A stretch of 64,000 nt of DNA from an uncultured archaeon (GTDB lineage: Archaea; Iainarchaeota; Iainarchaeia; Iainarchaeales; VGJJ01). Where the stretch lies: NCBI GenBank assembly GCA_964427715.1, contig CAYRUV010000002.1:85663-149662 (forward strand). The letters run 5' to 3'. The first letter of the stretch is position 1; each line of letters opens with the position of its first letter. A model generated the notes under the pieces. It searched no databases, was not told where the DNA came from, and was given only the letters and a program-made list of their open reading frames with translations. The translations under genes and the position numbers were made by a program. Below, piece by piece: positions 1 through 47,743 of this stretch.

Positions 1-14
1 TAATAGAATGTGTT

Positions 15-743: not shown

Positions 744-804
744 ACGTAATCAATCCACTATCTATCGGGAGTCCGATATATTAAAAGGGTGCGTAAAAAC
801 GACC

Positions 805-1008: not shown

Positions 1009-1065
1009 CGAGTAGAAGTATAAAAAAGAGAAGGGCGGAACACCGCCCCCACACTGATTTCGACG

Positions 1066-1629: not shown

Positions 1630-1747
1630 GAGAAAACACCCTCCCAACACACCCAACAAACCATTGGAGAAGAAAAAGATTACGAGGCTAGTGGAGATGT
1701 GCACCGACCTTTTCTAAGAGAAAAAGCTCGACCAAAAGGGAAACGAA

Positions 1748-1821
1748 CGAGGCCGGTGGGATTTGAACCCACGGCACGCGGATTAAAAGTCCGCTGCTCT
1801 ACCAGGCTGAGCTACGGCCCC
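1748..1821 (-). tRNA. tRNA-Lys (anticodon UUU)
   Basis: 74-nt cloverleaf read by eye on the minus strand: acceptor GGGGCCG/CGGCCTC, D arm GCTC-AGCCTGGTA-GAGC, anticodon arm GCGGA-CTTTTAA-TCCGC, T arm GTGGG-TTCAAAT-CCCAC. No CCA is encoded. Confidence 0.9.
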
Positions 1822-1932
1822 GTACAAGAGGAAAAACCCCAAATAACCGTTATAAAACAACCTTTTTGACCCCACATCCAAAAGGCACCTTTTTAGGAAA
1901 ATAGGACGAAAACAAGCTAAGGAGTTGGGAAA

Positions 1933-2688
1933 ATGGCCGTATTCGAGACAATCGGAATAGTTGTGATAGTGGGAATCATCATTGCTTGGAGTTTGAGACT
2001 CATCCAACAGTACGAGACGGCCATCGTATTCCGACTCGGAAAAATGCACCGCACATTGGGACCGGGGCTCAATTTTATCGTCCCCATCATCGACCGCAGC
2101 GTAACGGTAGACATGCGCGTGTTGACGATTGACATCCCTCGACAGCAAGCCATTACGAAAGATAACGTACCGGTCTCCATCAACGGCGTCGTATATTTCA
2201 AAGTGAATGATGCCAGCAAAGCCATCATCAACGTCCAAGACTACGTGTACGCTGTCTCACAGTATGCCCAAACCGCCCTGCGCGACGTGGTGGGAGGAAT
2301 GACCCTCGACGAAGTATTGGCCGAACGACAAAAAATCGGCGAACAAATACTCGAAATTGTAGAAAAAGAAAGCACCCAGTGGGGACTCGACATTACGGCC
2401 ATCAAAATGCAAGACATTGAACTCCCAGAAGACATGAAGAAGATCATGGGACGACAAGCAACCGCCGAACGAGAAAAACGAGCCAACATCACCAAGAGTG
2501 AAGGAGACAAACTCGCCGCCAAGAACCTCGCCGACGCCGCCAAAATCATGGAAGCCACGAATGGAGCGATGCAACTCCGAACGTTGCAAACCATTGATGG
2601 ACTGGGACCCACCCCCTCCAACACAGTCATCTTGGTCCCCGTTGAGTTGTTCTCGGGAATCCAGCAATTCCTCAAAAAGAAGAAGTAA
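1933..2688 (+). CDS. SPFH/band-7 (stomatin/prohibitin-like) membrane protein
   Basis: 251-aa ORF with an N-terminal TM helix and a typical SPFH core (YETAIVFRLGKMHRTLGPGLNFIVPIIDR...TKDNVPVSINGVVYFKV...ALRDVVG). Confidence 0.9.
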   Translation: MAVFETIGIVVIVGIIIAWSLRLIQQYETAIVFRLGKMHRTLGPGLNFIVPIIDRSVTVDMRVLTIDIPRQQAITKDNVPVSINGVVYFKVNDASKAIINVQDYVYAVSQYAQTALRDVVGGMTLDEVLAERQKIGEQILEIVEKESTQWGLDITAIKMQDIELPEDMKKIMGRQATAEREKRANITKSEGDKLAAKNLADAAKIMEATNGAMQLRTLQTIDGLGPTPSNTVILVPVELFSGIQQFLKKKK

Positions 2689-2764
2689 ACCAGACTAGGA
2701 AAAATGGACACCACCCCTAAGTCGGGTGCTGATCGAACGAGGGGTGAAAACACCCCTCTAAAAG

Positions 2765-2838
2765 CGAGGCCAGTGGGATTTGAACCCACGGCACGCGGAT
2801 TAAGAGTCCGCTGCTCTACCAGGCTGAGCTATGGCCCC
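2765..2838 (-). tRNA. tRNA-Lys (anticodon CUU)
   Basis: 74-nt cloverleaf that differs from the 1748-1821 tRNA at only three positions: anticodon loop CTCTTAA and one compensated acceptor pair (GGGGCCA/TGGCCTC). Confidence 0.9.
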
Positions 2839-2951
2839 AAAAAGGGTATACTCGCTATACCAAGGAAATGCCCGAGAAAGCATTAAAAAAGACCTTCCTG
2901 AAGACCCACCGAACACGGCATCCGGAGCCATTAAACCCCCTAAAACAACCC

Positions 2952-3752
2952 TCAGGAAGGAACCACCGTCAACGTGTTGAGGGTCCGCGACCCCACGTAG
3001 GTAGTGGCATCGTAATAGAGACTGGTTCCAGTAGGAGTGTGAGACGTGAAAAAATCATCCGACACGGGAACCGTCTTCAGGTGGATTCGATACTCCGTAT
3101 AGGGCGCCTGCGCATCCATCCTCACCGTTAGCACCACCGGATGCACCCACTCGGAAGAAAAAAGAGGAAACGTCGGACCCAAAATGAAACCCGACGAGGA
3201 CTCAGGATCTAAGGACAACGAGACATACGGTGCATCCGAAGAATCCTCCAACACGGCCTCCAAACGCACCGCCTGCATGGAACGAACCCCATACCCGGAA
3301 TGAATGAAAAAACGAAACGACTTTTCGCCCCCCTTCAATACGCCCGAACGCGACTCAAAGGGATACAAGGAAACCCCCACCAACCCAAAGTGCGAAGCTA
3401 AAGGAGACGTCCACTGACGCAGACCCTCGGACTCAAAATTAGGATAAAACTCAGGCTGAAGAAAATACTCCGGAGTAAAAAAGAACGCATCCGAAAACTT
3501 CCCCGATTCAAACGCGGAGGAAATAGAAACCAAACACGCAGGGGGGGAAGGTAATTGGCCAAAAATGGACGAACTAACCCCATACGCCGAACGATTCACA
3601 TCCACACACCCGGAATAATCCCCCGGGGATAAAGGAGAAGAGAAAATCCCACCCAGAAGAACAACACCAACCACCCCCACCAGCACTAGACCCCCCACTA
3701 AAGGAACAACCCAGGAAGGAATGGAATGCGAACGAGAATGATGAAGACGCAT
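2952..3752 (-). CDS. B-family protein (membrane-anchored, QPEFYP / LGPTFP motifs), copy B1
   Basis: ATG 3752 (MRLHHSRS) lies 4 nt after the giant gene's TAG stop. It has an N-terminal TM helix (VVPLVGGLVLVGVVGVVLLGGI) and shares EYFLQPEFYPNF and ILGPTFPLFSSEW with 12883-13704 and 44644-45705. Confidence 0.7.
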   Translation of the reverse strand: MRLHHSRSHSIPSWVVPLVGGLVLVGVVGVVLLGGIFSSPLSPGDYSGCVDVNRSAYGVSSSIFGQLPSPPACLVSISSAFESGKFSDAFFFTPEYFLQPEFYPNFESEGLRQWTSPLASHFGLVGVSLYPFESRSGVLKGGEKSFRFFIHSGYGVRSMQAVRLEAVLEDSSDAPYVSLSLDPESSSGFILGPTFPLFSSEWVHPVVLTVRMDAQAPYTEYRIHLKTVPVSDDFFTSHTPTGTSLYYDATTYVGSRTLNTLTVVPS

Positions 3753-3756
3753 AACG

Positions 3757-6700
3757 CTAAGCCACCGTATTCGAATCCACATTCCGATCCTCGTTTCCTA
3801 CTGCTGCTGCGATGAAATCCGCCCAGAAGAAGATGTTCAAATCAAACGTTCCCGCAGTATAGGACGCACGACCCACACTCTGCGTGGAAGGCGCCGCCGG
3901 AATCGCCACACAACCTGACGCTGGATTGCCCCCGCAGCCCGCCTCATACCCGCCCACAATGTTACTCGCCTTCAACACTAAGGAAGAGGGAAGCGACTCA
4001 TTCAGGTCTAAAATAATATTGAAATCCGTCGCGGACGAAGACTGATTGTCATACACAAAGAACGGCTGCGAGGCAGACTGACCCTCCGGAGCAATCTGAT
4101 TGGAATCCGCCACCCCCGTGGTATCGGTCGCCTCAAAATAGGCCCGCTGGCAGGAAGTACCGCCAGTGAGATTTCCCTTATTTGATGTACAACCCGAAGA
4201 AGGCAGGAAAAGAACAAAGGAATAATCCAAGGACCCTGACGTCACCACGTCCGGAACATAATACACCGCCCCATTGTTCGTGCGGAAGAAGAAATTCACA
4301 TCCGCCGCGGAAGCCGTGATCAACAAATCATTCGCGTAGGAATCATTATCCGCATTGATGACCTGAACCCCTTCTCCGGAATAGAAGGAGGCCCCTAATT
4401 GATTCCCTGAACGACTCCCGCGCCAACGCTTGTCGTAATTGGAAGCATTGAGAAGATCCTTGAAACCCGAATCAAAATCAATATTCTTATCCAAGTAAAT
4501 CGACCCATTCTGCACCAAATAGGCCGTGTTCGCCGTGGTGGATGTAATCAACAAATCATTCGCATACGACTCATTATCTAGATTTTCGACCTGAACCCCC
4601 GAACCCGACGCACCGGACGCACCCAGGAAGCCTGAAGGCGTGTCGCCAACCCAACGCACATCAAACCGCGCCGGCGCATTCAAGTCGTATCGACCCCCAT
4701 TCGCATCTGAGGAAATATCCTTAATCAGATACACCGCCCCTGCGTCCGTACGACCATTCACATCCGCACGAACGGTAGATAATAACAAGTCGTTCGACCA
4801 GGCATTATTGTCGATATTCACCAACTGCACCCCAATACCCGAACGATTGGTGTCACCTAAATTATCCGTGGTCGCACCACCATTCACGGTGAAACTCACT
4901 GTATAGGGAACGGCAATGTTGTAGATCCCTGAATAGGTGTTCGCATCCTTAATTCCAAACACCGCCCCCACGTCCACCTTCCCATTGTAATCAAACCCGG
5001 ACGCCGTGATAAGCAGATCATTCGTCACGGAATTCCCATCCATATTCACCACTTGGACCCCACGACCCGTGTCTAAGACAAGGCCCGCTGTCCCCGTCAT
5101 CTCGAAGTCACCCAACTGATCATTGGCCGTCTGACCTCTCCACTGCGCATTCGCATTGGCGGCCACATTCAAGTCAAATCGACCAATCTTGCTCTGGACA
5201 TCTAGAATCATGTAGACCGAACCAATGTTCGTCTTCCCATTCGTATCTGCCAAGGGAACATTCAGAATAATATCATTCGCATTCGTATTCCCATCCAAAT
5301 TAACCACCTGCAACGCACGACCCGACTGACTCGTGTCCCCTAAGGAATCCGTGGTCGCCCCACCCTCCCAGTATGCCGTAAAACTCGCCGGCGCCGCGAT
5401 GTTAAGATCATATCGACCCGGCGCAATCGTGTTGATGTCCTTAATCAAATAAATAATTCCAGTATCGGCCTTATTCCCATCCGCCGCCGAACCCGTAATG
5501 AACAGGTCGTTCGACGTCCCGTTCCCATCTAGATTCACGATTTGCAGCCCGGGACCCGAACCATTGTTGAACCCCATTGTATCACTCGTACGGCCCCCAT
5601 TCCACTGCACCATTCCAGGAGCATTGAAAACCTGATTCAAATCAATCGAACCCGTCTTTCGATGCGCATCCTTAATCAAGGTGACAAGACCCACATTCAA
5701 CTTAGAATTTACATCTGCCATGGGAGCCATAATCAGCAAATCATTCGAATACCCATTCCCATCCACATCAATCACATACAACCCATCCTCCTGATGGCTC
5801 GAAGTGGTTGTGTTGCTAGAGCTCAGCTGATCATCATTCGTCGTCCCATTCCAGGCCGCATTATACCCCGTGGGGAGATTCATGTCCTTAATCCCTGACA
5901 ACTTGTCGATGTCTAGAATCATGTAAACACGACCCCCGTCCCTCTTGGAATTCGCATCCGCATAGGCGGCTGAGATTAACAAATCATTCGTGTAGCCATT
6001 CCCATCCATATCTACTAACTTGAGCGGATTATCCGTACGATTCGCATTTGCCAGCATCTCCCCTGCCGCCCCACCCGTGAAGCGCACCGAGGAACTCGCG
6101 ACAAAATTCAAATCAAAATTACCATCCCATCGATCGATATCCTTGATGAGATACACTGCCCCATTATTCACTTTCGCATTCGCATCTGCCATCGGCGCCA
6201 CGATAATCATGTCATTCGAATACGAATTCCCATCCACATTCACAATCTGAAACCCGCGACCATTGAAATTAGTGTCCCCAATAATGTCCCCCGCGACACC
6301 ACCCCACCAGCGCGCACTGTAACTATTGATGTGCTTGTTCAAATCAATATTACCCGAATTCATATCAAAATTCTTGAACAAATACACCGCCCCCGCATCC
6401 GCCTTCCCATTCACATCCGCACGAGGAGCCGAGAGGATGAGATCGTTGTTGTAGGACCCATTATCGATATTCACGAAATAAACCCCTGAATCATTCGACG
6501 CCGTCATCCCCAAAAAGTCATTCGATGAGGCTCCCTCGAAACGAATCTGGTAATTGTACCCTTGGAGCAAATCATACGAATTGTCCGGATCCACGTGGAA
6601 ATACCACTGCGGCTCCGGAGGAATACTTGGACCTGCCGAGGTACCCACCCCGTAGAAACGAAATGTGTAAGCGCGATTGGCATCATTCGACTTCAACGTC

Positions 6701-9700
6701 CAATTGGCATCAAAACCCGTATTCAAGAGAAGAACAGGAACCTCTTCCTCACTCTGAGACTCACTCACAATGTAGAGCGGCGAAGAAGTGTCTGTGTTTG
6801 CATCCACAAAGTTCGTACACCCCACCCCAATACAATATTGGAAGTTGACATCCACCCCTCCGCAGGAAGCAATCCTACACGTCACGCGCGTGGAAACATT
6901 GATGTTCATGGAAACTTGGTATGAATTCCCATCATACGCGGGATTGTCAATACGATACGTCAAAATCCCATTCGGCGTGGGATTCGAATTGATATCCTTG
7001 ATGAGGAACAACGCCCCATTATTCACGAACTTATTCATGTCCTTCTGAGACGAAAGAATCAGCAAATCGTTGGCCAACGCGTTCCCGTCCGTGTTGTACA
7101 CTCCGACTGTGAACCCGGAGCGATTGTTATCCCCCAGTGTGTCATTGTTATTATCGCCCTGCCACAAGTGAGTGTAGTTGGTATTCAAATCCAAATTACG
7201 ATTCCCATCCGTATTCACACCAACATTCCGAATGTAGTACACTCCACCCTGATTCGTCTTATTATTATCCAACCGAGGAACCACGATGAAGAAATCATCC
7301 ACATTGATATCCCCATCCATATTCGCCAAATAAACTCCCGGATCGGACCCATTTGCGTCCCCAATCATATCCCACGCATTCGCCCCGGACCAGCGAATAT
7401 TGTATGGACGATAAGCCGCCGCCGTCGAATTCAAATCAATCGCACCAGAAGTGGAATACCCCGCATCCCGAATTAAGTAAATCGCCCCATTATCCAGCTT
7501 CCCATTCACATCCGCATAGGGTGAAATGAAGAGCAAATCGTCACCCGCCGCATTACCGTCCACGTTCAACTGATAGAATGGAGGACCGGAAAAATTATTA
7601 TCCGACAAACGATCCCCCGCACCACCATTCAAACGGAAAGAAAAATTAGGGATTTGACCAAGATAGCGGCGAGCCGCCGACTGCCGGATGGTGGAAACGT
7701 CACGAATCACATACCAGACCCCAGGATCCGTCTTCCCATTCACATCCGCCACGCCCGAACCAATAATCACATCGTTCGGACCCGCGTTCCCATCCAGATT
7801 CAACACATCAAAACCCCACCCCTCACTTTGGGAACGAGTAATCTCCTCATTCGATGCAGAACCATACCACGAGACGTTAAATGAAGGAAATCCCTGATAC
7901 GGCGTCGTATTCAAATCGAAACGACCACTGCGAGTGTTTAGGTCAGTAATAAAGTACAACATTCCATTGTTCGAGAACAAATTAAAATCCGCTAAACTCG
8001 CCGCCACAAACAAATCATTAGCCGTCTTGTTCCCATCAGTATTGTACATACGAGCATAGGGCCGAACGAACTCATTTGAAAGAATGTACGGAGACGCGGT
8101 CCCGAGATTGTCGTTCGAACGACCCCCACTCCACATCGCCGTGAAATTATTAACCGTGGAATTCAAATCAATGGTCCCAGAACGCGTGTTGATATCCCCA
8201 ATGTAAAACACGGCCCCATTGTCCGTGAGATTATTGACATCAAACAGCGGAGCCGTGAGAATCAAATCATTCGTGAATCCATCCCCATTCAAATCGAACA
8301 ATTGAGTCCCCGAACCATACCCGCGCGTATTCCCCAATCCCGCTAAAGTAGCCCCACCCACCCACTGCACCGAATACAACGCCACATCCGACAACCCGCG
8401 AATCCCATTCGGAATGTTCACGACGTCCTTAATCACTGTCACCGCCCCACAATCCACACGCAGAGTGTTACAATCATACCCGGTGCTAGTAATCAACAAA
8501 TCATTCGCCTGCGCATTATTATCCAAATTCACTACCTGCGTACAATTCCCACTCCCCCCACACCCGCCCAACAAATTTGACGTGGCCAACCCATTCCCAT
8601 CAAAGCGAATATTGTATGACGTGGTGAGATTCAAATCCTTATATCCAACCATGGTATTGATGTCGCGAATGATGTAAATACTCCCCGAATCCGTACGATT
8701 GAAATCCGCCAACGTATTTGTGATAATCAAATCGTTCGCCGTGAGATTTCCATCCAAATTAACCACTTGAACACCCTGGCCCCCGAAGTTGGTATCCCCA
8801 ATAAACAAGGACGCCATTGAACCCCCCCACGCGACCGAATACCCTAACGGACTATTGAAATCATACAAACCCGACTTGGTATCAATATCCTTGATGAGAT
8901 AAACACCACCCGAATCCGTCTTGTTGTTCACATCCGCGTTCACGGCCGTCAAGAGCAAATCGTTCGTGTAGCCATTCCCATCCACATCCAGCAGCTGCAC
9001 CCCAATACCCGAACCCACCGCCAAACGACCCGTACGACCCAAAAAATCATTCGGACGACCCCCATTCCAACGCACCGAAAAATTGGCCGGATTTATCAGA
9101 CTGTACGCCCCACTATACGTGTTGATGTCCCGAACCAGATACACGGCCCCGGCATTCTGCTTCGCATTTGCATCCACTAATGGGGCCGTGAACAGCAAAT
9201 CATTCGCAAACGCCCCATCATCCACATTCACGACTTGAACACCCGTATTCGAATCGAAAGTACCCCCAACCGCCCCAAACATGTTCCCATCCCACACCGC
9301 CGAAAAATTAGGCGGAGAATTCAACTCGTACGTGGGATCAATAACCACCGAATCGCGCGCCGGAACATCCACCGAGATAATCGTGTCAATAATAGGAGCG
9401 TCCCCCCGCGAATGAACCAAACCTATTGGAGAAACCCCGCTCCGCCAATAATCCGACCAATCATACCGACCCACCGGAACATTCTCACGCGAACGAAATT
9501 CAACATACTCATTAATGAGCAATGGAACCGGCAACACCGGAGAATTTTCCACCGACAACGAAAAGGGATCCTCCCGCGTGTGAACCACCTGATACCGAGA
9601 AGACTCGGGAAGAAGACGCTCCTCCGTCAACACCGTAAACGGACGCGCCCACAAACGAATATTCACCAACCGACGCACCGGAACATCCGAGGAATTAGAG

Positions 9701-11604
9701 AGAACCAACGACTGCTTGACCTGCGGAAGGGAATCCCCCAAAATCGTCGTCTTAGGATCCGGAGAACGAGGATCAAACTCATTGAAGACATTCTGCAACG
9801 ACACCGAATCACACGAAAGGAAACCATCCCGCGACTCCCCTAATCCACGATTATCCAAAACAGACTCATCCAAGTCAACGATCCTCTCATCCGACGAAAC
9901 AACCCCAGCTTGAACGAGCGAAGGCGATTCATCCGAAAGAACGGAAACCACACCAGAAACGGCAGCAGTATTCGCCCCCGCGGGAAGTTGACCCCGATCA
10001 TCCACCCGACGCTGAGGACCACACTCCAATGAGATCTCCATCCGAGTGAACAACGAAGACAAAATCAACGAATCGCTCTCTGAAAAACGAGTCGTGGAAA
10101 ATGCGCGATTCTCAAACAATGACTTCAAATCCTTCAGCGCTTTAGCCAACGCCTCCGCATCCGAAAGGGGAAGATCATCCAACACCGACTCGGGAGAGGG
10201 AAGCAAATAGAAACGATACGCGGACGAAGAAGAAACGAGCCGAGTATCAGAACGAGGAGACCATTCCCCCAAACACGAGGACGAAGAAGCATCCCAGCGC
10301 GCACACACTTCCCCCTTCGACCCATCCACGGAGGGAGAAAGCGAATACGACCCACTCTCAAAAGGAACATTCGTCCGGATGAAAATGATCTGAGAACCAT
10401 CCTCCGAAGGAGGATAATTCGTGATCTCCGTCAGAATACCCTCTTTGGAAACCGAAACCCCACTCCAAATAACCCCCGCGAGAGGAGACGTCAACAAGGA
10501 AGAGACCAACGAATACGACCCTGGAAGAACCGGAACCGGATGCTCACCCCCCTCAATCCGAGAACCATCCGCCGAAATCAAAACGTGAGAACCAGGATGA
10601 TTCGAAAAAGTCACCGAAACAGGAACCCCCTCAAACGGACGATTGCGACCCAGGGGAACCACGCGAAACAAAGACCCCTCCGAATCCCGACCGATGAAAA
10701 AAGAATCATCCGACGAAAGAGAGATGCGAAGAGGAGACGGACACGACCCGGAAGTCGACGTGGAACCAGGACACCAGACCAACCCCTCCTTCTCCCCGAG
10801 AGGATACGACAACACCAATTTTTTACGCGGAGAATCCACCCCAAAAAACAAATGAACACCCACCGAAGGAGAAAACAACTCATCCCCGACACGAACAACA
10901 TCCGGAAGAACCGCTGAATCCAACAACACCCCCGTAGAATCCGACCGCAAATCAAACGAATCTAAGTCCACACGTGAAAAAGGCTGATCCCAAAACGTGA
11001 AACGAGCCGAGTACGAACCCGCAGGAACCCGCATGACCCCGCCGGATGAAACGGACATGACGTCGCCCGAACCATCCACTAATTCGAAAGCCCCCGAATG
11101 ATTCGAAGGAGTGAAAAGAACCGGCAGTGAAACAGAAGAACCACCAGAAGAATCAACCCCACCCGAAGACGAAGACGAATCATCCCCTCGATCCCCCCGA
11201 GAACCGGAAGGAGAAACGACTCCATCATCGGAAGAATTACGAACCTCCACACTCACTGATTTTTCCGAACACGCGAAACCCGAACACACCTCAATCACAA
11301 ACGAATGAGACCCATTCTCCACCGACGAAGAATCCCACTCCACCAACCACCCCTCACGAGCCGAAAAAGAAGACTCAAACGAAAACGAATCATCCGCGGA
11401 ACGAATCACCGCACGATCCACACGCGAAGGATCTGAAATGGAAAGCAAAAAACCCACCGGACCCGACACGACCTCACGATCCAGCGGAGAAACCACCCCA
11501 AAATCCGGAGCCCCCTCCCGCAACAACTCCTGCGCCGCGGTGAAGAATGGAAAAAGTACCAGCACAAGGACAAGGAGACACGACCCTACGAACATTGTAC
11601 GCAT
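3757..11604 (-). CDS. giant secreted surface protein (2,615 aa) with 20 FG-GAP/VCBS-like repeats
   Basis: Single open frame. I place the start at ATG 11604 (MRTMFVGSCLLVLVLVLFPFFTAAQ, a signal peptide), because the ORF-track extension to 11907 overlaps the divergent gene and promoter. It has a Ser/Gly-rich linker, 20 tandem 75-85-aa units (G.GVQVVNLDGN...NDLLITA..AD.NGK.D.GAVYLIKDI....G..DLN) and a C-terminal Cys-containing domain of about 160 aa. Confidence 0.9.
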   Translation of the reverse strand: MRTMFVGSCLLVLVLVLFPFFTAAQELLREGAPDFGVVSPLDREVVSGPVGFLLSISDPSRVDRAVIRSADDSFSFESSFSAREGWLVEWDSSSVENGSHSFVIEVCSGFACSEKSVSVEVRNSSDDGVVSPSGSRGDRGDDSSSSSGGVDSSGGSSVSLPVLFTPSNHSGAFELVDGSGDVMSVSSGGVMRVPAGSYSARFTFWDQPFSRVDLDSFDLRSDSTGVLLDSAVLPDVVRVGDELFSPSVGVHLFFGVDSPRKKLVLSYPLGEKEGLVWCPGSTSTSGSCPSPLRISLSSDDSFFIGRDSEGSLFRVVPLGRNRPFEGVPVSVTFSNHPGSHVLISADGSRIEGGEHPVPVLPGSYSLVSSLLTSPLAGVIWSGVSVSKEGILTEITNYPPSEDGSQIIFIRTNVPFESGSYSLSPSVDGSKGEVCARWDASSSSCLGEWSPRSDTRLVSSSSAYRFYLLPSPESVLDDLPLSDAEALAKALKDLKSLFENRAFSTTRFSESDSLILSSLFTRMEISLECGPQRRVDDRGQLPAGANTAAVSGVVSVLSDESPSLVQAGVVSSDERIVDLDESVLDNRGLGESRDGFLSCDSVSLQNVFNEFDPRSPDPKTTILGDSLPQVKQSLVLSNSSDVPVRRLVNIRLWARPFTVLTEERLLPESSRYQVVHTREDPFSLSVENSPVLPVPLLINEYVEFRSRENVPVGRYDWSDYWRSGVSPIGLVHSRGDAPIIDTIISVDVPARDSVVIDPTYELNSPPNFSAVWDGNMFGAVGGTFDSNTGVQVVNVDDGAFANDLLFTAPLVDANAKQNAGAVYLVRDINTYSGAYSLINPANFSVRWNGGRPNDFLGRTGRLAVGSGIGVQLLDVDGNGYTNDLLLTAVNADVNNKTDSGGVYLIKDIDTKSGLYDFNSPLGYSVAWGGSMASLFIGDTNFGGQGVQVVNLDGNLTANDLIITNTLADFNRTDSGSIYIIRDINTMVGYKDLNLTTSYNIRFDGNGLATSNLLGGCGGSGNCTQVVNLDNNAQANDLLITSTGYDCNTLRVDCGAVTVIKDVVNIPNGIRGLSDVALYSVQWVGGATLAGLGNTRGYGSGTQLFDLNGDGFTNDLILTAPLFDVNNLTDNGAVFYIGDINTRSGTIDLNSTVNNFTAMWSGGRSNDNLGTASPYILSNEFVRPYARMYNTDGNKTANDLFVAASLADFNLFSNNGMLYFITDLNTRSGRFDLNTTPYQGFPSFNVSWYGSASNEEITRSQSEGWGFDVLNLDGNAGPNDVIIGSGVADVNGKTDPGVWYVIRDVSTIRQSAARRYLGQIPNFSFRLNGGAGDRLSDNNFSGPPFYQLNVDGNAAGDDLLFISPYADVNGKLDNGAIYLIRDAGYSTSGAIDLNSTAAAYRPYNIRWSGANAWDMIGDANGSDPGVYLANMDGDINVDDFFIVVPRLDNNKTNQGGVYYIRNVGVNTDGNRNLDLNTNYTHLWQGDNNNDTLGDNNRSGFTVGVYNTDGNALANDLLILSSQKDMNKFVNNGALFLIKDINSNPTPNGILTYRIDNPAYDGNSYQVSMNINVSTRVTCRIASCGGVDVNFQYCIGVGCTNFVDANTDTSSPLYIVSESQSEEEVPVLLLNTGFDANWTLKSNDANRAYTFRFYGVGTSAGPSIPPEPQWYFHVDPDNSYDLLQGYNYQIRFEGASSNDFLGMTASNDSGVYFVNIDNGSYNNDLILSAPRADVNGKADAGAVYLFKNFDMNSGNIDLNKHINSYSARWWGGVAGDIIGDTNFNGRGFQIVNVDGNSYSNDMIIVAPMADANAKVNNGAVYLIKDIDRWDGNFDLNFVASSSVRFTGGAAGEMLANANRTDNPLKLVDMDGNGYTNDLLISAAYADANSKRDGGRVYMILDIDKLSGIKDMNLPTGYNAAWNGTTNDDQLSSSNTTTSSHQEDGLYVIDVDGNGYSNDLLIMAPMADVNSKLNVGLVTLIKDAHRKTGSIDLNQVFNAPGMVQWNGGRTSDTMGFNNGSGPGLQIVNLDGNGTSNDLFITGSAADGNKADTGIIYLIKDINTIAPGRYDLNIAAPASFTAYWEGGATTDSLGDTSQSGRALQVVNLDGNTNANDIILNVPLADTNGKTNIGSVYMILDVQSKIGRFDLNVAANANAQWRGQTANDQLGDFEMTGTAGLVLDTGRGVQVVNMDGNSVTNDLLITASGFDYNGKVDVGAVFGIKDANTYSGIYNIAVPYTVSFTVNGGATTDNLGDTNRSGIGVQLVNIDNNAWSNDLLLSTVRADVNGRTDAGAVYLIKDISSDANGGRYDLNAPARFDVRWVGDTPSGFLGASGASGSGVQVENLDNESYANDLLITSTTANTAYLVQNGSIYLDKNIDFDSGFKDLLNASNYDKRWRGSRSGNQLGASFYSGEGVQVINADNDSYANDLLITASAADVNFFFRTNNGAVYYVPDVVTSGSLDYSFVLFLPSSGCTSNKGNLTGGTSCQRAYFEATDTTGVADSNQIAPEGQSASQPFFVYDNQSSSATDFNIILDLNESLPSSLVLKASNIVGGYEAGCGGNPASGCVAIPAAPSTQSVGRASYTAGTFDLNIFFWADFIAAAVGNEDRNVDSNTVA
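4240..9312 (-). repeat. array of 20 protein-level FG-GAP-like repeat units, interrupted by a roughly 140-aa insert at about 6553-6975
   Basis: I counted the units by eye in the translation (ORF-track aa 866-2556). The nucleotide copies are diverged and no long identical DNA repeats were seen. Confidence 0.8.
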
Positions 11605-11665
11605 GCCGGGAAGAACTTGATTAGGATTATTAACCCTTATATTGGAAGCCACACTACCTCGCCCC
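11605..11665. promoter_or_regulatory. 61-bp divergent promoter region
   Basis: TTATATT at 11637-11643 is centred about 26 nt upstream of ATG 11666. TTAATAAT (minus-strand reading of 11623-11630) lies about 20-26 nt upstream of ATG 11604. Both genes would be leaderless or have very short leaders. Confidence 0.5.
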
Positions 11666-12886
11666 ATGACACACTCATGGGCGGGAATCGCCTTCCTGGC
11701 ACTCCTCCTCCTTGCACCGATTGCCCATGCCGCCAGCACGGCCACCACCCTCTTCACCTTCCGAGTACCCGCCACGAGAAGCCTATCCGTCGCGTATGGA
11801 GGATCCTGCTCAGCCAGCGCCTTCTTCTTCAATGAAATCGACGCCAACTTTGACCCCGACGTGGACGGAAACGCGGCCAAAGTCAAACCCTCTGCCGTGC
11901 GAAACACCGCCGCCTACACCACCACCGACTACAACTTTGTGGGAGTCATCGGCCCCAGCGATCGAAACCGAGCATACTTCGGCAACTTATTGGAAGAACC
12001 ATCCACATCTATCTCACAACCAGCAGGAGAAATTGATGACGTGAACTACCACCGCCTAACCGTCGAAGATTTTAATTATTACTTTGCAGGAAACACCACC
12101 ACCCGCTGGCCCAGCCTGAGACTCGCATTCAAAGCCAACCCCCATGAACTGACCATTCGCGACCTCAACCTCACCTATGTGGGAGCAGCCACGAGAGGAA
12201 CCGATTGCGCATTCGAAGGAGGATTCGTAAATGACTCGGACCTCAACGGATGGATATGGAACTTCCGAACGGGAGCATACGAACGGGTATTCACCCATGA
12301 CGGAGACAATGGATTGACCTCAGACAGCGTCCTAGCGCTCCGATACGACGCCTACATTGACTATAACATCACCGACTACGTCGACCACGACCAAAACATC
12401 GTATTCCTCATCCAAGGACAACGAAAAGCAGGAGGCGCCACGGAATGCCTCGTCACCGACTTCGCGGAACTCAAAATCACCCACTACCCCCTCCAAACCC
12501 AATACTGCCAGAGTGAGACGGTTGCCCCGTTTACAATAACCAACAATGGAAACGTCGACGTGAACGTGGACGGAAACTTCGCCAGCGCATTCGCCGGAAG
12601 CGACGTGAATGTGGTGTTGAAAGTCTGGATGGGCACTGGAACCGGATGCGGAAACACCGGATATGGAGGATGGGAGGACACGTGCAGCGTGACATCCACC
12701 ACCAGCCCCGTCACCCCGACGCAGTGCAAGAACTACAACGAACACAACGAGACTACTGCCTCCCGACTCGTCACCAAACTTCTCGTTGGAGACACCAACC
12801 AACTATGCTTCTCCGGAGACTTCAACGTATTCGTATCGGGCGGAGACCACAACCAAAACTTCCAAGCCGGAGCCCTGTACTCATGA
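11666..12886 (+). CDS. A-family secreted six-Cys protein, copy A2 (406 aa, with a roughly 200-aa insertion)
   Basis: Signal peptide MTHSWAGIAFLALLLLAPIAHA. It shares ordered motifs with 43919-44578 (SLSVAYGGSCSASAFFFNE; ITNNGNVDVNVDGNF; LKVWMGTGTGCG; DTNQLCFSGDFN; GDHNQNFQAGALYS). ORF-track start 11642 is a TTG inside the TATA box. Confidence 0.75.
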   Translation: MTHSWAGIAFLALLLLAPIAHAASTATTLFTFRVPATRSLSVAYGGSCSASAFFFNEIDANFDPDVDGNAAKVKPSAVRNTAAYTTTDYNFVGVIGPSDRNRAYFGNLLEEPSTSISQPAGEIDDVNYHRLTVEDFNYYFAGNTTTRWPSLRLAFKANPHELTIRDLNLTYVGAATRGTDCAFEGGFVNDSDLNGWIWNFRTGAYERVFTHDGDNGLTSDSVLALRYDAYIDYNITDYVDHDQNIVFLIQGQRKAGGATECLVTDFAELKITHYPLQTQYCQSETVAPFTITNNGNVDVNVDGNFASAFAGSDVNVVLKVWMGTGTGCGNTGYGGWEDTCSVTSTTSPVTPTQCKNYNEHNETTASRLVTKLLVGDTNQLCFSGDFNVFVSGGDHNQNFQAGALYS

Positions 12887-13704
12887 ATCGAATCACGTAT
12901 AGCCTCATCCTACTTCCCATCCTCCTACTCGCAGGATGCACCACCCCCCAAACCAACGAACCAACACCATTCACCCAGACCGCAGAAGATATCCACCACC
13001 ACGACCTATTTCTCCTCCACGCCCAAAAAAATAACCAGACCCTGGAAGAAACCCGTGCGTTCTTTCAACAAACGTATGAAATCCAAAACGAAAACACCAT
13101 TTTCCAAAACCTCCCCACCCCCCCAACCACATTCAATGAACACCTCCAAGTCTGGAAGGGAGGAGACACCAACGCCCTCCTTCAAGTACCCCCCGAAACC
13201 TACCTCCAACCTGAATTCTACCCCACATTCCAAGAAACGGGACTAAATGCATGGATAAACGCCCCCAACCCCCCGGCCGCCGCCATGGGAATCATGAGCA
13301 TCCCCGCGGAACAAGAAACAACGATCCCCCCTGAAGAGACCACCATCGAAGCCGCCCTATACATCGGAAGCGCGTGGGGAACTACCTACTACCAGGGAAT
13401 GGGACTCCGATACACCCTCGAACCCAAAACCCCCCACACCCTCACCATCACCCCCGCAAACATTCTCGTCGGACCCACATTCCCACTCTTTTCCAAAAAT
13501 TGGATGAAACGCATCCAAATCCAAGGAACCATCACCCCCACCCCCGGAGTAAAAACATACACCCTCCGCCTATTTCCCGCAACACCCACGGTTGACCTGG
13601 AAAACCAATGGGCCTACACGCAAACACCCTACGTGAGAGCCGACACCACCCTCATCAACCCGGAAGGATTGGCCACCCTCACGATCCACGTCCAAGAGGA
13701 ATAG
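12883..13704 (+). CDS. B-family protein, copy B2 (lipoprotein-like)
   Basis: ATG 12883 overlaps the A2 stop (ATGA). The N-terminus MNRITYSLILLPILLLAGC is lipobox-like. Motifs ETYLQPEFYPTF and LVGPTFPLFSKNW are present. The ORF-track extension to 12646 lies inside A2. Confidence 0.75.
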   Translation: MNRITYSLILLPILLLAGCTTPQTNEPTPFTQTAEDIHHHDLFLLHAQKNNQTLEETRAFFQQTYEIQNENTIFQNLPTPPTTFNEHLQVWKGGDTNALLQVPPETYLQPEFYPTFQETGLNAWINAPNPPAAAMGIMSIPAEQETTIPPEETTIEAALYIGSAWGTTYYQGMGLRYTLEPKTPHTLTITPANILVGPTFPLFSKNWMKRIQIQGTITPTPGVKTYTLRLFPATPTVDLENQWAYTQTPYVRADTTLINPEGLATLTIHVQEE

Positions 13705-13735
13705 CGATAAAAGGGAACCCAACCCCAAGTAGACC

Positions 13736-14269
13736 ATGAAAATAGACATCATCCGACTATCCGAACGAGGATACCGCGACCTGAGAATCACCACCCACTG
13801 CGCCCTGGTGGCACGCGCGTGGGGCGCTGAACGCATCATCCTCTCGGATGACACCGACCCCCAAATAGGAAAGAGCGTGGACGCGATATCCACCCAGTTT
13901 GGAGGAACATTCAAGGTCGAATATGAGAAAAAACTCCTCCACCGAATCAAAACCATGAAGAAAGAAGGGTATACGATTGTCCACCTCACCATGTACGGAG
14001 AAAAACCCGGAAAACAAATTCCCCTCATCCGAAAAAACAAGAAAATTGCCGTGGTCATTGGATCCGAAAAAGTGGAAGGAGACGTGTATCGACTCGCCGA
14101 CTATAACATCGGAATTACCCGACAACCCCACAGCGAAGTCGCCGCCCTAGCCGTGTTTCTACATTACTTGCAGGAAGGAAAAGAAGAAGAATTGATTTTC
14201 AAAAACGCCAAAAAAATTGTCGAACCCAACCCCCGAGGAAAAACCATCCGATCCACGCGCGACATTTAA
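13736..14269 (+). CDS. trm56: tRNA (cytidine56-2'-O)-methyltransferase aTrm56 (SPOUT)
   Basis: 177 aa. The N-terminus IIRLSERGYRDLRITTHCALVARAWGA matches my recollection of the aTrm56 RLGHR..RD.R.TTHV.L.ARA.GA pattern. Size and the C-terminal knot region (IGITRQPHSEVAALAVFL) fit. Confidence 0.75.
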   Translation: MKIDIIRLSERGYRDLRITTHCALVARAWGAERIILSDDTDPQIGKSVDAISTQFGGTFKVEYEKKLLHRIKTMKKEGYTIVHLTMYGEKPGKQIPLIRKNKKIAVVIGSEKVEGDVYRLADYNIGITRQPHSEVAALAVFLHYLQEGKEEELIFKNAKKIVEPNPRGKTIRSTRDI

Positions 14270-30824: not shown

Positions 30825-30827
30825 ATC

Positions 30828-38624: not shown

Positions 38625-38639
38625 CGTGAGGCGCTCTCC

Positions 38640-39530: not shown

Positions 39531-39533
39531 ATT

Positions 39534-43918: not shown

Positions 43919-44578
43919 ATGAAAACACAAAACATTCTCTCGATTCTCGTATTAGGATTCCTTATTTTTGGCACGCTCGCGAGCGCGGCCGATCTATCCA
44001 CGACCACGATGACGTGGTTCGTGCCCACGATTAAGAGTTTTACCGTCTCATACGGTTCCCCTTGCTCTTCCACGGCCTTCTTCTTCGTGGAATCGAATGC
44101 GCAATACGACAATGATACAGATGCCAACTGGGCACGTGCCGTTCCTCAGTCCACGCGAACAGGGGCCGGGGACACCAACTGTCAAACCAGCTCACAAGCG
44201 GCGATTACTCTCACAAATAACGGAAACACCACGATTAACATCGATGGAAACTTCACTTCCGGACTTACGGGGTCGGATATCAACCTCGAATTGAAGGTCT
44301 GGATGGGCACCGGTTCCGGATGCGGAACGAATGGAATGGGCGGATGGCAGGAACCTTGCAGCGTAACAAATACCACCTCGGCTCCCACCTCTACTACCTG
44401 TAAGGAGTTTAGTAGCGGCACTGGCATCGACACGGAAGGAACGCGACTTGTAACGAGTTTGCCGGCTCTCGACACGAACCAATTGTGCTTCTCTGGAGAT
44501 TTGAACGGAATGTCCGGATACGGAGCCACTTCCGGGGATCACAATAAGACATTCCAGATTGGCGCTCTCTTCAGCTAG
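43919..44578 (+). CDS. A-family secreted six-Cys protein, copy A3 (minimal, 219 aa)
   Basis: Signal peptide MKTQNILSILVLGFLIFGTLASA. Motifs SFTVSYGSPCSSTAFFFVE, LTNNGNTTINIDGNF, LKVWMGTGSGCG, DTNQLCFSGDLN and GDHNKTFQIGALFS are shared with A2. Confidence 0.75.
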   Translation: MKTQNILSILVLGFLIFGTLASAADLSTTTMTWFVPTIKSFTVSYGSPCSSTAFFFVESNAQYDNDTDANWARAVPQSTRTGAGDTNCQTSSQAAITLTNNGNTTINIDGNFTSGLTGSDINLELKVWMGTGSGCGTNGMGGWQEPCSVTNTTSAPTSTTCKEFSSGTGIDTEGTRLVTSLPALDTNQLCFSGDLNGMSGYGATSGDHNKTFQIGALFS

Positions 44579-44643: not shown

Positions 44644-45705
44644 ATGACCGAACACCATACTTCCACGCAAGAAAATCACGCTGGGGCTCACCATGCGGTA
44701 GGGTCCAAAGGAAAAGGGATTCCCACCTGGGCTCTTTTGGTTGGAGTGGTTCTCCTCATTGGGGGAGTATATTTGTTTGTTTTTTCTCCCGCTACGACGC
44801 TTTCTCCCACTGTTCCTTCATCCTCGGACGGGACTGAGGATTCGGTCATCGGATTTACGGGCGAGCCTTCTGTTGCGCCCATTGCGTCTAACGGTGCTCC
44901 GGACAGTACGGTTCTCTCCAAGGCTAAGTATCTGAAGGAACTGTACACGGTGGATCGGGATTCCTATCAACTTTTTGAAAAGGCCGCCGCCTATCGGGGA
45001 GAAACACTCGATGAGACGAAGAAGTTCTTCCTGAATTGCTGCGATTTGGGAAGTCAAGAGGAAATATTCGCTGAGCTTCCTCTCATCCCTTCTGATTTCT
45101 CAACGGTTGCATTCAATTTTGCAACGGGTCAGCTTTATCAGTTAGGTTCCATGTCGGAATCGTACTACAAGCAGCCTGAACTTTATTTCCACACCGATCA
45201 AACCGCGCTGGCGAATCGAAAGCTCGCCTTCTCGGCATGGTCGCAACCTCAGCTCAACTATTGGGGCGATTACGGTGCGAGTTCTACCCCGGCTGATCAA
45301 TATGGGGTGGTGAGCAAGAAGAATAACAAGACCTTCAAGGCCGCCGTCTTCGTGACGAATGGGTGGAATATCCAAAATTGGGTGGGTATGCACATGGTGA
45401 CCAACTTGAGTGCTTCTCAATTCTTTGATGTGAAGATTTCTGAAGAGAAGACCGGGCAACCTTACTTCTTGCTAGGTCCTACTTTTCCCACCTTCAGTAG
45501 AGATTGGGCGACCAAACTCACGATTGAGGGAACAGTGAAAGACTCTACTCCTCCTGGCGTCTATCAGGTGCGCGTGAATCCCATTCAGCCTCCTAAGGAA
45601 TTGAGTCAAAAATGGTCGGATGATCACTTGGGGATTTATGTTCCCTATGGCGGATTGGTCCCCGATACCGGGTTCATCACGCTGAATATCACCGTGACTG
45701 AATAG
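44644..45705 (+). CDS. B-family protein, copy B3 (TM-anchored)
   Basis: ATG 44644 is preceded by AGGGGG. It has TM helix WALLVGVVLLIGGVYLFVF and motifs SYYKQPELYF and LLGPTFPTFSRDW. ORF-track start 44620 is a GTG. Confidence 0.75.
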   Translation: MTEHHTSTQENHAGAHHAVGSKGKGIPTWALLVGVVLLIGGVYLFVFSPATTLSPTVPSSSDGTEDSVIGFTGEPSVAPIASNGAPDSTVLSKAKYLKELYTVDRDSYQLFEKAAAYRGETLDETKKFFLNCCDLGSQEEIFAELPLIPSDFSTVAFNFATGQLYQLGSMSESYYKQPELYFHTDQTALANRKLAFSAWSQPQLNYWGDYGASSTPADQYGVVSKKNNKTFKAAVFVTNGWNIQNWVGMHMVTNLSASQFFDVKISEEKTGQPYFLLGPTFPTFSRDWATKLTIEGTVKDSTPPGVYQVRVNPIQPPKELSQKWSDDHLGIYVPYGGLVPDTGFITLNITVTE

Positions 45706-45760: not shown

Positions 45761-47743
45761 ATGATTTGCTCGCGCGGAGGGATTCTTCTCGCTCTGTCCT
45801 TCCTTTTCCTATTTTCCCTCGCCGCGCACGCCGATCCGACTCCCCTAGTGGGTAGCAATCCTACCTGGATAACTGGATTGGGCGGCACCTATTCGCTTGG
45901 TCTGTCGTATTCGCTCTGCCCCTCGACGACGGGCAATACCACGTTGCATGCGAACGTAGCCACTGTCCCACTCGGGGTCTCAACGGTGGATGCGAATGTT
46001 TTTGCAACTATTCGGAAGCCAGATTTATCCACCACGGATGTGAATTTCACGAATAACCTGAGTGGGGATTACACCTACACTTATAATTTTGATCAGAATG
46101 GGACCTACTTCATTCAAGCCCATGTGTATCACCCTGTCACACTAGGGGTTGGAGATGCGAATGGCTATGTGTATTTGGGCGATTTAAACTGGACTGTGGC
46201 GTTTCTCAACAATGATTTCGAGATTGAGATTGGTGAAACAGGGACAATTCGAAATACGGTGACGAATTCAGATGGGAATCTGGTTTATGACATCAATGCA
46301 AATACTACCCTCTATTATCCTAGTGGGAGCGTCGCGGATGCAAATGCAATAATGACTCAGACTTCCGATGGCGAATTCATCAAAGCTTTCTTCGGCCCGT
46401 CTCCTGCGGGAGACTACACGGTGTCTTCCATCTTCAAATGTGGGGGCAAGTATGTCGCGAATGGTTCCGGAGCATTCACGGTAACTGCTCCCGACACGAA
46501 TGGGGGAACCAGTAGCGGGGGCAGCAGCAGTGGTGGTGGCGGCGGTGGTGGTGGTGGCGGTGGCGGTGGTGGTGGATCCAAAACGGCTCAAATAATTGGA
46601 TTCGATTTCGATCCGGCTCTATCAAAGAACGCCTCTTCAGTCTTCAGTGTGACCGTCCAGAATCTCACGGGCACTGTCAAGGACTATCTGCTAGAGTACG
46701 CCATCACTCATCCATCGGGAGAATTGACGACGGGTGAAAAATTAATTCTGGCTGTGGCACCCTATCAACCCACCTCAGTGGTTTTGAATTCCGGGTTCAC
46801 TCCCCAGTATACGGGAACGTATACCTTCACTGGGTATCTGCGCACGCCCAACAAAATTGGATTATATGACATGAAGACCACCGTTTTGGATGTTCAGGGA
46901 GAACACCTCCTGAACGTCACATTAGACACGCCCTCCCCCAAGACCGCATCAGGCCTCACATTCCCATTCACGCTCGTCCTTCATAATGCAGGGGATTTTC
47001 CCGAGGAGAACGTCTTGATTCAGTGGTCGCTCACGGATGCAGAGGGAGACGAATACTTCAATTCTTCTTTCACCGCCATTCTTCCAGTGGCCGGGATTCA
47101 ATCATTTGCCCTTTCGCCGTTTATTCCAATCGATGTCGCTTTGGGGTCGCACACCCTTCTGGTGAAGGTCACTTCATCCGGCATCATGCAGGAAAAATCA
47201 CTCATGTTCGATGTCGCATCGCCGAACGACTATTATGCACAGTTCATCTCTGATCTTGAAGTGCGCATCGACCAATTGGAAGACAAGATTGACGAGCTTC
47301 AATCAAAAGGATTTGATGTGGACGCGGAATCACTGATCTTATTGGATCTCAAACAAGAGTTAGGGGACTCAAAAGGAATGTTGTTGTCCGGAAACTTCGC
47401 GCAACTCAATACTCAACTGTTAGAATTGTCGGAAAAAGTGACAAAACTGGCCGCCATTCTCGACAACATTGAGCAACAGGCACCTTTACTCTCCCGAGAG
47501 GGATTGACCATTATCCTCTACGTGGGGGTTGGCCTCATGCTTGCCACATTCCTATGGTTCCTCTTCGCACGTCGACGGAAGAAAGAAGAGGGCCCTAAAT
47601 CTCCGCCCGTGCGTCCCCTAGCGCCCAAACACATGGATAAGATGCTCGGAATTGATGTGACTTACTATCCCTCTCTCAAGCGCGAGGGCCTCAAACATAA
47701 GCCTTTAATATCCGACCTTCTTGGGTTGAAGGAGAGGAAATGA
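45761..47743 (+). CDS. surface protein (660 aa): signal peptide, beta-rich domains, Gly15 linker, coiled coil, C-terminal TM anchor
   Basis: ILLALSFLFLFSLAAHA signal, Gly/Ser tract, coiled-coil region (LEVRIDQLEDKIDELQSKG...), and TM plus basic stop-transfer LTIILYVGVGLMLATFLWFLFARRRKKEE. Confidence 0.8.
   Translation: MICSRGGILLALSFLFLFSLAAHADPTPLVGSNPTWITGLGGTYSLGLSYSLCPSTTGNTTLHANVATVPLGVSTVDANVFATIRKPDLSTTDVNFTNNLSGDYTYTYNFDQNGTYFIQAHVYHPVTLGVGDANGYVYLGDLNWTVAFLNNDFEIEIGETGTIRNTVTNSDGNLVYDINANTTLYYPSGSVADANAIMTQTSDGEFIKAFFGPSPAGDYTVSSIFKCGGKYVANGSGAFTVTAPDTNGGTSSGGSSSGGGGGGGGGGGGGGGSKTAQIIGFDFDPALSKNASSVFSVTVQNLTGTVKDYLLEYAITHPSGELTTGEKLILAVAPYQPTSVVLNSGFTPQYTGTYTFTGYLRTPNKIGLYDMKTTVLDVQGEHLLNVTLDTPSPKTASGLTFPFTLVLHNAGDFPEENVLIQWSLTDAEGDEYFNSSFTAILPVAGIQSFALSPFIPIDVALGSHTLLVKVTSSGIMQEKSLMFDVASPNDYYAQFISDLEVRIDQLEDKIDELQSKGFDVDAESLILLDLKQELGDSKGMLLSGNFAQLNTQLLELSEKVTKLAAILDNIEQQAPLLSREGLTIILYVGVGLMLATFLWFLFARRRKKEEGPKSPPVRPLAPKHMDKMLGIDVTYYPSLKREGLKHKPLISDLLGLKERK
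46532..46576 (+). repeat. 15 consecutive Gly codons (GGT/GGC/GGA simple-sequence tract)
   Basis: ggt ggt ggc ggc ggt ggt ggt ggt ggc ggt ggc ggt ggt ggt gga, read in frame and preceded by Ser/Gly codons. Confidence 0.95.

Follow-up and report, generated by a model that had tools for sequence, protein, structure and literature searches.

The window analysed here is a stretch of 64,000 nucleotides on contig CAYRUV010000002.1 of an uncultured archaeon of the Iainarchaeota. It encodes two families of putative surface proteins, which we call A and B, in three gene pairs. In the first, a giant secreted protein on the minus strand (3757..11604, 2,615 residues; identified by its Pfam FG-GAP match, repeat count and hydropathy) ends in what appears from profile comparison to be a diverged A domain of about 156 residues (3760..4227, minus strand, DYSFVLFLPSSGC...NVDSN). 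Its stop codon stands 4 nucleotides ahead of the ATG of B1 (2952..3752, minus strand, 266 residues), its putative membrane-tethered partner by BLASTP, hydropathy and gene pairing. On the other side of a 61-bp gap (11605..11665) lies A2 (11666..12886, plus strand, 406 residues), which has a Sec signal peptide and is recognised by BLASTP to A3. Its A domain is split into an N-terminal and a C-terminal part by an insert of 195 residues in a loop (11921..12505, plus strand). The stop of A2 overlaps as ATGA with the start of its partner B2 (12883..13704, plus strand, 273 residues), characterised by its predicted structure, Foldseek matches and lipobox. The third pair consists of A3 (43919..44578, plus strand, 219 residues), a minimal stand-alone A whose Sec signal peptide closes on an A-x-A site, and its partner B3 (44644..45705, plus strand, 353 residues). 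The B3 reading frame opens at GTG 44620; judging from the starts of orthologues, ATG 44644 is probably the true start. B3 is followed by p660 (45761..47743, plus strand, 660 residues), third member of a single-A/B/p660 trio defined by synteny, an alignment of 26 orthologues and hydropathy. Translated searches (tblastn) of all parts against the window recovered exactly two A domains, three B domains and one giant C-terminal domain. The arrangement of the giant, B1, A2, B2 and A3 agrees, coordinates included, with an initial annotation made from the sequence alone.

The gap between the giant and A2 is putatively a divergent promoter region. Direct reading of its sequence reveals two back-to-back TATA-like boxes: CTTATATT at 11636-11643 on the plus strand, about 25 nucleotides ahead of the A2 ATG, and TTAATAAT on the minus strand at about 11633-11626, some 20-28 nucleotides ahead of the giant ATG. 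This TATA-to-ATG spacing suggests leaderless or near-leaderless mRNAs for both genes. A consensus TATA box, TTTATATA, precedes A3 at 43884-43891. Across the giant and A2/B2 region (positions 1-14000 of the window), GC skew is strongly negative and AT skew positive.

A2 and A3 share all the motifs of the ordered series that the initial annotation had listed for them, and BLASTP aligns them in two separate stretches, the C-terminal half (E 2e-46, 55 % identity) and the N-terminal part (E 1e-16). A2 is therefore A3 plus an insert, first put at about 200 residues and measured at 195 with BLASTP and tblastn, for which we found no detectable relative in the window (tblastn), in the local Pfam or among PDB sequences. 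Orthologues of A2 have 405-418 residues, and cluster representatives of about 400-417 residues align in two stretches. Six cysteines are invariant across 42 close family members. The broad family, profiled from 44 stand-alone members, keeps C49, C88, C147 and C161 (A3 numbering), while the pair C135/C190 is limited to the close clade; this profile conserves essentially Cys, Gly, Gln and Asn only and holds no catalytic-type residues. The proposed modularity of A is borne out by three settings. It makes up stand-alone proteins of about 180-230 residues, it accommodates extra domains at two loop positions in proteins of about 400-1,050 residues, and it forms the C-terminal end of larger secreted proteins (590-2,700 residues). 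A proteins bear a Sec-type signal and an A-x-A site followed by a polar strand, and the mature N-terminus of A3 (TTTMTWFVP) is among the best conserved A segments. No class III signal peptide or retained hydrophobic N-terminal helix was found in them, and profile comparisons gave no similarity to the pilin-like protein of a cluster adjacent to A3, nor homology to p660 (both <1 %).

The A family is small. Only 67 clusters, including divergent stand-alone members of about 190 residues, emerged when 1.84 billion representative proteins were searched exhaustively with an A profile, and A3 has 50 close homologues. The named homologues of A and B come from metagenome-assembled genomes (MAGs) labelled 'Candidatus Diapherotrites', 'Iainarchaeum' or unclassified archaeon, with one labelled Thaumarchaeota, and all are annotated as hypothetical. 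We rejected a viral origin of A/B, as no relatives of either were found on IMG/VR viral contigs.

The giant comprises a Sec signal peptide, an N-terminal region of about 800 residues, some 17-20 FG-GAP-like repeats in two blocks and the C-terminal A-like domain. Its repeats measure about 78 residues and contain 17 strict D/N-x-D/N-G-D/N calcium-loop-type motifs at a spacing of about 76-85 residues; the protein passes the Pfam FG-GAP model (PF01839) with 26.9 bits against a cut-off of 22.1. Hydropathy detects no hydrophobic or transmembrane segment besides the signal peptide. Orthologues of 1,525-1,757 residues occur in three related loci (L003, L004 and L007; loci carry L numbers throughout), and the four giants share 51-57 % identity over their aligned last 220 residues or so. 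Invariant columns are concentrated from DYSFVL onward, the upstream repeat stretch diverging in L003, and four cysteines are invariant in the C-terminal domain. This concentration of invariant columns and cysteines marks the last 156 or so residues as a distinct unit.

Is this unit an A domain? That it resembled A2 and A3 was the weakest of the claims in the initial annotation. BLASTP against A2 and A3 finds nothing, and neither does a narrow A profile built from 42 close A3 relatives (probabilities of 0.3 % and 2.5 %). In hhalign, by contrast, the broad A profile matches the four giant C-termini with a probability of 97.4 % (E 9.8e-12); the alignment runs over 151 columns and takes in the full length of both domains. 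For the window giant sequence alone, the match stands at 94.4 % (E 8.8e-8). Controls, consisting of one reversed and 20 column-shuffled giant alignments, stay at or below 0.6 %. Profile searches (hmmsearch) agree in both directions: a model of the giant C-terminal domain picks out six stand-alone A proteins of divergent sequence (1e-7 to 1e-11), and the A model recovers a giant C-terminus in L031 (1e-8). The motifs brought into register coincide with those of the initial annotation, and the cysteine pattern fits, the domain keeping the equivalents of A3 C49, C147 and C161. The claim is thus confirmed at the level of profile comparison, with the statistical similarity between the giant C-terminus and A2/A3 emerging through the broad profile only, and we regard the last 156 or so residues as a diverged A domain.

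The three B proteins of the window are related to each other (BLASTP 2e-18 for B1/B2, 3e-23 for B2/B3 and 2e-15 for B1/B3), and their family counts about 65 members among billions of sequences. The shared anchor and core motifs initially noticed in them extend to the family, QPE.Y and GPTFP.F..W being invariant or nearly so across 64 B proteins. B1 starts with a signal-anchor helix (residues ~10-42) that leads into the B core. B2 has a lipobox-like LLLAGC, a Pro/Thr linker, a helical domain (~34-125) and an immunoglobulin (Ig)-like sandwich (~137-270), and B3 has a signal-anchor helix, a long Ser/Thr/Pro linker and the B core. These signals recur in the relatives, with an N-terminal signal-anchor helix in B1 and B3 types and a lipobox-like L-x-x-G-C in 13 of 14 B2 types, in line with the extracytoplasmic, tethered location first proposed for B. 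The conserved positions across the 64 sequences are P78, Q109, P110, F203 and W207 plus near-invariant L, E, F, Y, G and Q; Cys, His, Ser, Asp and Lys are all absent from this set. With its anchor signals, low-complexity linker and aromatic/Pro/Gln/Glu/Gly conservation, B looks like a binder rather than an enzyme. An AlphaFold2 (AF2) model of B2 (mean predicted local distance difference test (pLDDT) 92.3, predicted template modelling score (pTM) 0.83) shows the helical domain followed by a sandwich of seven to eight strands (137-270). Foldseek found no match for the helical domain. For the sandwich it returned numerous Ig-like domains with E-values from 7e-5 to 2e-3, including the fibronectin type III (Fn3)-like domain of cucumisin, VAP MSP, PapD-like domains of HYDIN and CEP192, Calx-beta, Caf1M, FaeE and cohesins.

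Searches of family libraries agree with the original view that neither A nor B belongs to a named family. Against the local Pfam and NCBIfam, A, B and the giant C-terminal domain gave sub-threshold noise only, and profile searches with A and B matched no well-characterised family in these libraries. Scanned one by one against the local Pfam, 44 A and 64 B proteins produced isolated matches at chance level (for example, Fimbrial at E 0.0075). Among PDB sequences, nothing was found with the profiles of A and B or with the A2 insert and the giant as queries, the best hit being an archaeal type IV pilin at E 0.71. One caveat is a precomputed match to PF27237 (AF_1625_C), a model newer than, and absent from, the local Pfam copy used for our scans; it falls on A2-type orthologues in L003, L004, L005, L007 and L058 and on no stand-alone A. 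Our literature searches returned no paper mentioning AF_1625 and nothing relevant on surface proteins or adhesins of Iainarchaeota/Diapherotrites. By sequence, then, A and B appear as two uncharacterised, phylum-restricted families, outside the local Pfam and NCBIfam, PDB sequences and the searched literature.

The adjacency of A and B, which the initial annotation had suggested following across archaeal genomes, holds in a set of 58 loci. Of these, 48 came from a scan with the A family (narrow alignment, one genome per species) and 10 from other look-ups. Loci of the scan are nearly all labelled Iainarchaeota (DPANN) or unclassified archaeon and include one complete 1.05-Mb genome. All open reading frames (ORFs) were scored with hidden Markov models of A, B and the giant domain, the loci themselves being chosen by A only. 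Of the 72 A-bearing ORFs with enough downstream sequence, 66 are followed on the same strand by a B domain that begins no more than 600 bp away. The exceptions are tandem A arrays with one terminal B (L049, L056), loci with B just upstream (L003, L023) and one without B (L032). Subfamilies pair one-to-one: the giant C-terminal domain goes with B1-type proteins in 17 of 17 cases, split A with B2-type in 10 of 10, and single A with B3-type in 29 of 31. Such strict pairing points to specific, co-diversified A/B partners and upholds the idea of a B dedicated to its A.

A giant repeat protein with a distinct C-terminal domain, a small cognate gene next to it and additional stand-alone pairs also recalls polymorphic toxins, CdiA-CT/CdiI and Rhs loci having a similar layout. 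The C-terminal A domain of the giant would then be a toxin, B a surface-exposed immunity protein, and A2-B2 and A3-B3 orphan modules. However, it is in its C-terminal domain that the giant is most conserved, not most variable, and all three pairs are orthologous across genomes and syntenic with housekeeping genes. On these two grounds we rejected this explanation. A moreover keeps no catalytic-type residues, and no matches were found in PDB or in the local Pfam toxin families; we consider a toxin/immunity role highly improbable.

Gene order around the pairs extends beyond what was initially described, by p660 and by a larger cluster. Single A and B are always followed by the p660 gene of about 660 residues, seen in more than 30 loci. 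The product starts with a signal peptide and Ig-like domains, continues with a Gly/Ser linker, two further beta-rich domains and a coiled coil, and crosses the membrane with a C-terminal helix (580-603) that leaves a short cytoplasmic tail with a conserved LGL motif. Pfam gives weak YtkA and Filamin matches; the two further beta-rich domains gave no family match and read as CARDB-like. In 10 loci, from another clade than the window's, the series giant, B, A, B and p660 is united in a single cluster on one strand, which argues that the three A/B pairs and p660 are one functional neighbourhood. In the window's clade the giant/B1 and A2/B2 units precede Trm56 and TFE, and the trio directly follows a type IV pilus-like cluster; the cluster of the other clade implies that this link to pilus genes is not obligatory.

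We tentatively favour a model in which A and B form a lineage-specific two-component system for surface display, B being the cognate membrane dock for A-domain proteins; it is the most economical of the readings considered, although we stop short of calling it probable. It is suggested first by the adjacency of A and B and their cognate subfamily pairing, and by the ATGA overlap of A2/B2 and the 4-nucleotide spacer of giant/B1, which indicate coupling. The giant and other large proteins end in A and possess no transmembrane segment besides the signal peptide, so an external anchor would be needed. For its part, A looks like a scaffold or docking base for variable cargo, since it tolerates whole-domain inserts at two loop sites and conserves few residues. 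B conserves a Pro/aromatic-rich surface rather than catalytic residues and has a flexible tether, and its Ig-like domain resembles protein-binding sandwiches (MSP/PapD-like, cohesins, Calx-beta). The single-strand cluster of giant, B, A, B and p660 in 10 loci also speaks for a dock.

Under this model, A-domain proteins would be exported by Sec and fold outside the cell, A forming a beta-sandwich of about 180 residues with two universally conserved cysteine pairs and a third pair in this clade. B would be produced from the same transcript, often via translational coupling, and fixed in the membrane through its signal-anchor helix or a lipid-modified cysteine, with the helical and Ig-like head carried on a flexible Pro/Ser/Thr tether. 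Each head may bind the A domain of the protein encoded ahead of its own gene and thereby keep that protein on the cell. The giant FG-GAP adhesin would dock to B1 via its C-terminal A domain, and A2, held by B2, would present its loop-inserted domain of 195 residues. The pair A3-B3 and p660, a stalk anchored at its C-terminus, may constitute the conserved core of the same surface apparatus.

Several observations weigh against a docking role. A Rosetta-stone check of 181 proteins revealed no A-B fusion. Tandem arrays of two or three A genes with a single B (L049, L056) suit a shared chaperone at least as well as a one-to-one anchor. Stand-alone A3 has no obvious cargo, yet is the best conserved member of its family. 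The best structural neighbours of A, weak as they are, are all donor-strand fibre subunits, and the Ig-like matches of B are generic.

The two loci with tandem arrays differ in organisation. In L049 (4744-9442), three tandem split-A paralogues (ORFs of 418-440 residues) are followed by one B2-type gene, a departure from the one-to-one rule. In L056 (1-10022), which represents a distant AT-rich lineage, we observed, in this order, a giant of 2,758 residues with DUF2341/Big_13 domains, a 670-residue protein ending in A, a 183-residue A and a 284-residue B with the motifs WIQPEF and LGPMYP. The locus also encodes a 155-residue protein that combines a signal peptide with a transmembrane helix at its C-terminus.

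One B for several tandem A genes is also what would be expected if B were only a transient extracytoplasmic folding factor for disulfide-rich A, with A proteins released or held otherwise. The strict gene pairing and coupling are also consistent with such a role, and the four to six conserved cysteines of A would need oxidative folding outside the cell. However, B has no conserved cysteine or other redox motif, three co-diversified B paralogues exceed the needs of a general folding factor, and the anchor-less giant is left unexplained. We find this alternative decidedly improbable.

Predicted structures of A raise the question of whether its proteins might polymerise. The AF2 model of A3 (pLDDT 86.7, pTM 0.77) is a beta-sandwich behind the signal-peptide helix, and in the monomer the mature protein lacks regular secondary structure over its first 18 residues (pLDDT ~77-80). 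Foldseek found nothing at E 1e-3 or better for this model in PDB or BFVD. The best weak PDB matches (E 0.08-0.3, template modelling (TM) score of 0.37 at most) are TLP-1a/b, Csu, SafA, FimA and the cannula protein CanA (E 0.3-2 for CanA), all of them subunits of donor-strand fibres. A could be a fibre subunit assembled by donor-strand exchange, each A lending its conserved N-terminal strand to complete the sandwich of the next, with the giant as tip adhesin. B, tethered to the membrane, would be a PapD-like chaperone and base anchor capping A before it polymerises. The N-terminus of TLP-1, disordered in AF2 models, is reported to become the donor strand in the fibre (PMC11494351), and the highly conserved N-terminus of mature A is likewise irregular in its monomer model. 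The B sandwich matches PapD-like, MSP, Caf1M and FaeE folds among others, several A genes can share one common B, and the giant has the architecture of a tip adhesin. These points are all sub-significant or generic. The Foldseek matches of A reach neither an E-value of 1e-3 nor a high TM score, no sequence link connects A to TasA or fimbrial families, and B consists of one Ig-like and one helical domain, not two Ig domains. The N-terminal segment of A, at its pLDDT, may simply pack on its own domain. Chaperone-usher tip adhesins are not known to have the N-terminal strand region, unlike the large proteins of our loci, whose C-terminal A domains retain it. We regard a fibre as unlikely, yet as the main rival of the docking model.

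The likeness to chaperone-usher systems (Caf1/Caf1M, Fim, Csu, Saf), members of which are among the weak Foldseek neighbours of A and B, extends to the genes. In both cases a secreted beta-sandwich subunit is encoded beside an Ig-like partner, an adhesin carries a subunit-type C-terminal domain, and several subunit genes can occur per partner. However, B is seemingly membrane-tethered and combines one Ig-like with a helical domain, sequence similarity is absent, and the structural likeness of A is not significant. None of the 64 B proteins has a Pfam match to PapD-type chaperones (PF00345 and PF02753), and no usher gene turned up, either in the gene tables covering the modules with their flanks or among the Pfam-scanned neighbours in the window. 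To our knowledge, archaea have no outer membrane.

Donor-strand filaments that do without a chaperone occur in archaea (PMC12518558, PMC9245690, PMC11494351). Like A, proteins of the TasA superfamily (TasA, AbpA, the Sulfolobus 0406 thread, CanA/CanX) and TLP-1 are Sec-exported beta-sandwiches or jelly-rolls of about 150-230 residues with a conserved N-terminal strand; unlike A, they have no B-like partner. The best fold matches of A, weak though they are, belong to this group. Scans with the TasA model (TasA/Peptidase_M73, PF12389; PMC12518558) gave no Pfam match in 44 A members, and PDB sequences gave none either. Another point of difference from TasA-type systems is that no signal peptidase I gene was found in the gene tables of the module loci examined. 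We know of no earlier case of chaperone-assisted, usher-less donor-strand assembly in a single-membrane cell. If A and B were the subunit and the membrane-tethered chaperone/anchor of a new DPANN donor-strand fibre tipped by the giant FG-GAP adhesin, which we judge unlikely, this would be the first such system, arisen independently of bacterial chaperone-usher pili.

The universal single-A/B/p660 trio suggests yet another possibility, that A3, B3 and p660 build an envelope resembling a surface layer (S-layer). In this scheme p660 would be a SlaB-like stalk, the giant and A2 would sit in the lattice via their A domains, and the B proteins would connect lattice and membrane. The layout of SlaB consists of a signal peptide, beta-sandwich domains, a coiled coil and a C-terminal transmembrane helix, and p660 has the same domain order. 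A3 is highly conserved and preceded by a consensus TATA box, and the trio adjoins the type IV pilus cluster in one clade. Moreover, the SlaA/SlaB system of Sulfolobales keeps its outer, secreted component in place through a co-encoded protein on a membrane-anchored stalk, much as proposed here for A and B. However, B is anchored N-terminally and lacks a coiled coil, the size of A is a tenth of that of SlaA, and we detected no homology between the systems. A lattice protein of 20 kDa would be atypical, and p660 shows no homology to A. No sequence match to SlaA/SlaB was obtained, no large lattice protein was identified beside p660, and sequence and fold searches gave no match to S-layer families besides one SbsC domain among the generic Ig-like matches of B2. 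We hold an S-layer role to be distinctly unlikely.

The docking model also has a parallel in cohesin-dockerin pairs and other modular non-covalent surface anchors, where a small, conserved terminal domain is met in a type-specific manner by a cognate Ig-like or sandwich partner bound to membrane or wall; cohesins are themselves among the fold matches of B. Homology is absent, however, A is a predicted disulfide-bonded sandwich of 180 residues and not a small calcium-binding helical dockerin, and A and B genes are always adjacent. For its part, the giant resembles integrin-like FG-GAP adhesins in its 17-20 or so repeats with the D/N-x-D/N-G-D/N motif and in its Pfam FG-GAP match; it differs in being archaeal, in its period of about 78 residues and in having an A domain, not a transmembrane helix, at its end. 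Judged on the diagnostic features that could be searched for, A/B appears to be neither a chaperone-usher, a TasA, a class III pilin nor a toxin/immunity system, the FG-GAP assignment of the giant being the only one to hold. By analogy, A/B plausibly works like known two-component systems of surface attachment or assembly, such as chaperone-usher subunit/chaperone pairs, SlaA/SlaB and cohesin-dockerin.

A dependence on contact with other cells or with surfaces is generally assumed for DPANN archaea. The loci described here offer a conserved candidate for the means by which such cells hold their huge surface proteins: a portable domain of about 180 residues, C-terminal or stand-alone, with a membrane partner in three co-diversified versions and a stalk protein. 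They provide two new protein families to name and a rule for spotting surface proteins in Iainarchaeota genomes, namely an A domain followed by a B gene. This genetic rule is unusually strict, and the role of the two families is plausibly surface docking. The relevance is a specialist one, for DPANN cell-surface biology and archaeal appendages, and would rise sharply if the fibre model were true. Should A polymerise, its proteins would represent a new class of archaeal fibre.

Additional features surround these modules. The pilus-like cluster upstream of A3 (37122-43792) is of type IV pilus/archaellum type and comprises a T2SSE ATPase, two T2SSF genes, a KaiC-like ATPase on the minus strand, a pilin-like gene (41447-41917; 156 residues with a class III-type N-terminus), a DUF7504 gene and, on the minus strand, a 380-residue protein that we judge to be coiled-coil from its sequence. 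Its order is kept in L001, L002 and about 10 other loci. Ahead of it, a block of same-strand genes mostly without family (28063-36599) includes a 1,058-residue protein with LVIVD repeats and a VWA domain (31306-34482) and a 385-residue protein with weak TrmB-regulator and lamin-tail matches.

Some A and B genes are broken. An A2-type gene is divided into ORFs of 276 and 144 residues in L006/L040 (2380-3628), and a B3-type gene is split in two ORFs in two MAGs (L014, 2128-3090, and L016, 6847-7826), one being the complete genome CP064981.1. These are frameshifts, from assembly errors or pseudogenes.

Between the A2/B2 unit and the block at 28 kb, G+C falls to 0.41-0.46 over 14-22 kb of the window. 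A protein of 1,173 residues (19489-23010, minus strand) has no Pfam match and is syntenic downstream of the A2/B2-Trm56-TFE block in L003, L006 and L058. L058 also encodes a 723-residue Xer-like integrase with intein and LAGLIDADG domains (6486-8657, minus strand); at the corresponding place, the window has an ORF of 311 residues (17075-18010, minus strand) that, by its length, would be an intein-free version.

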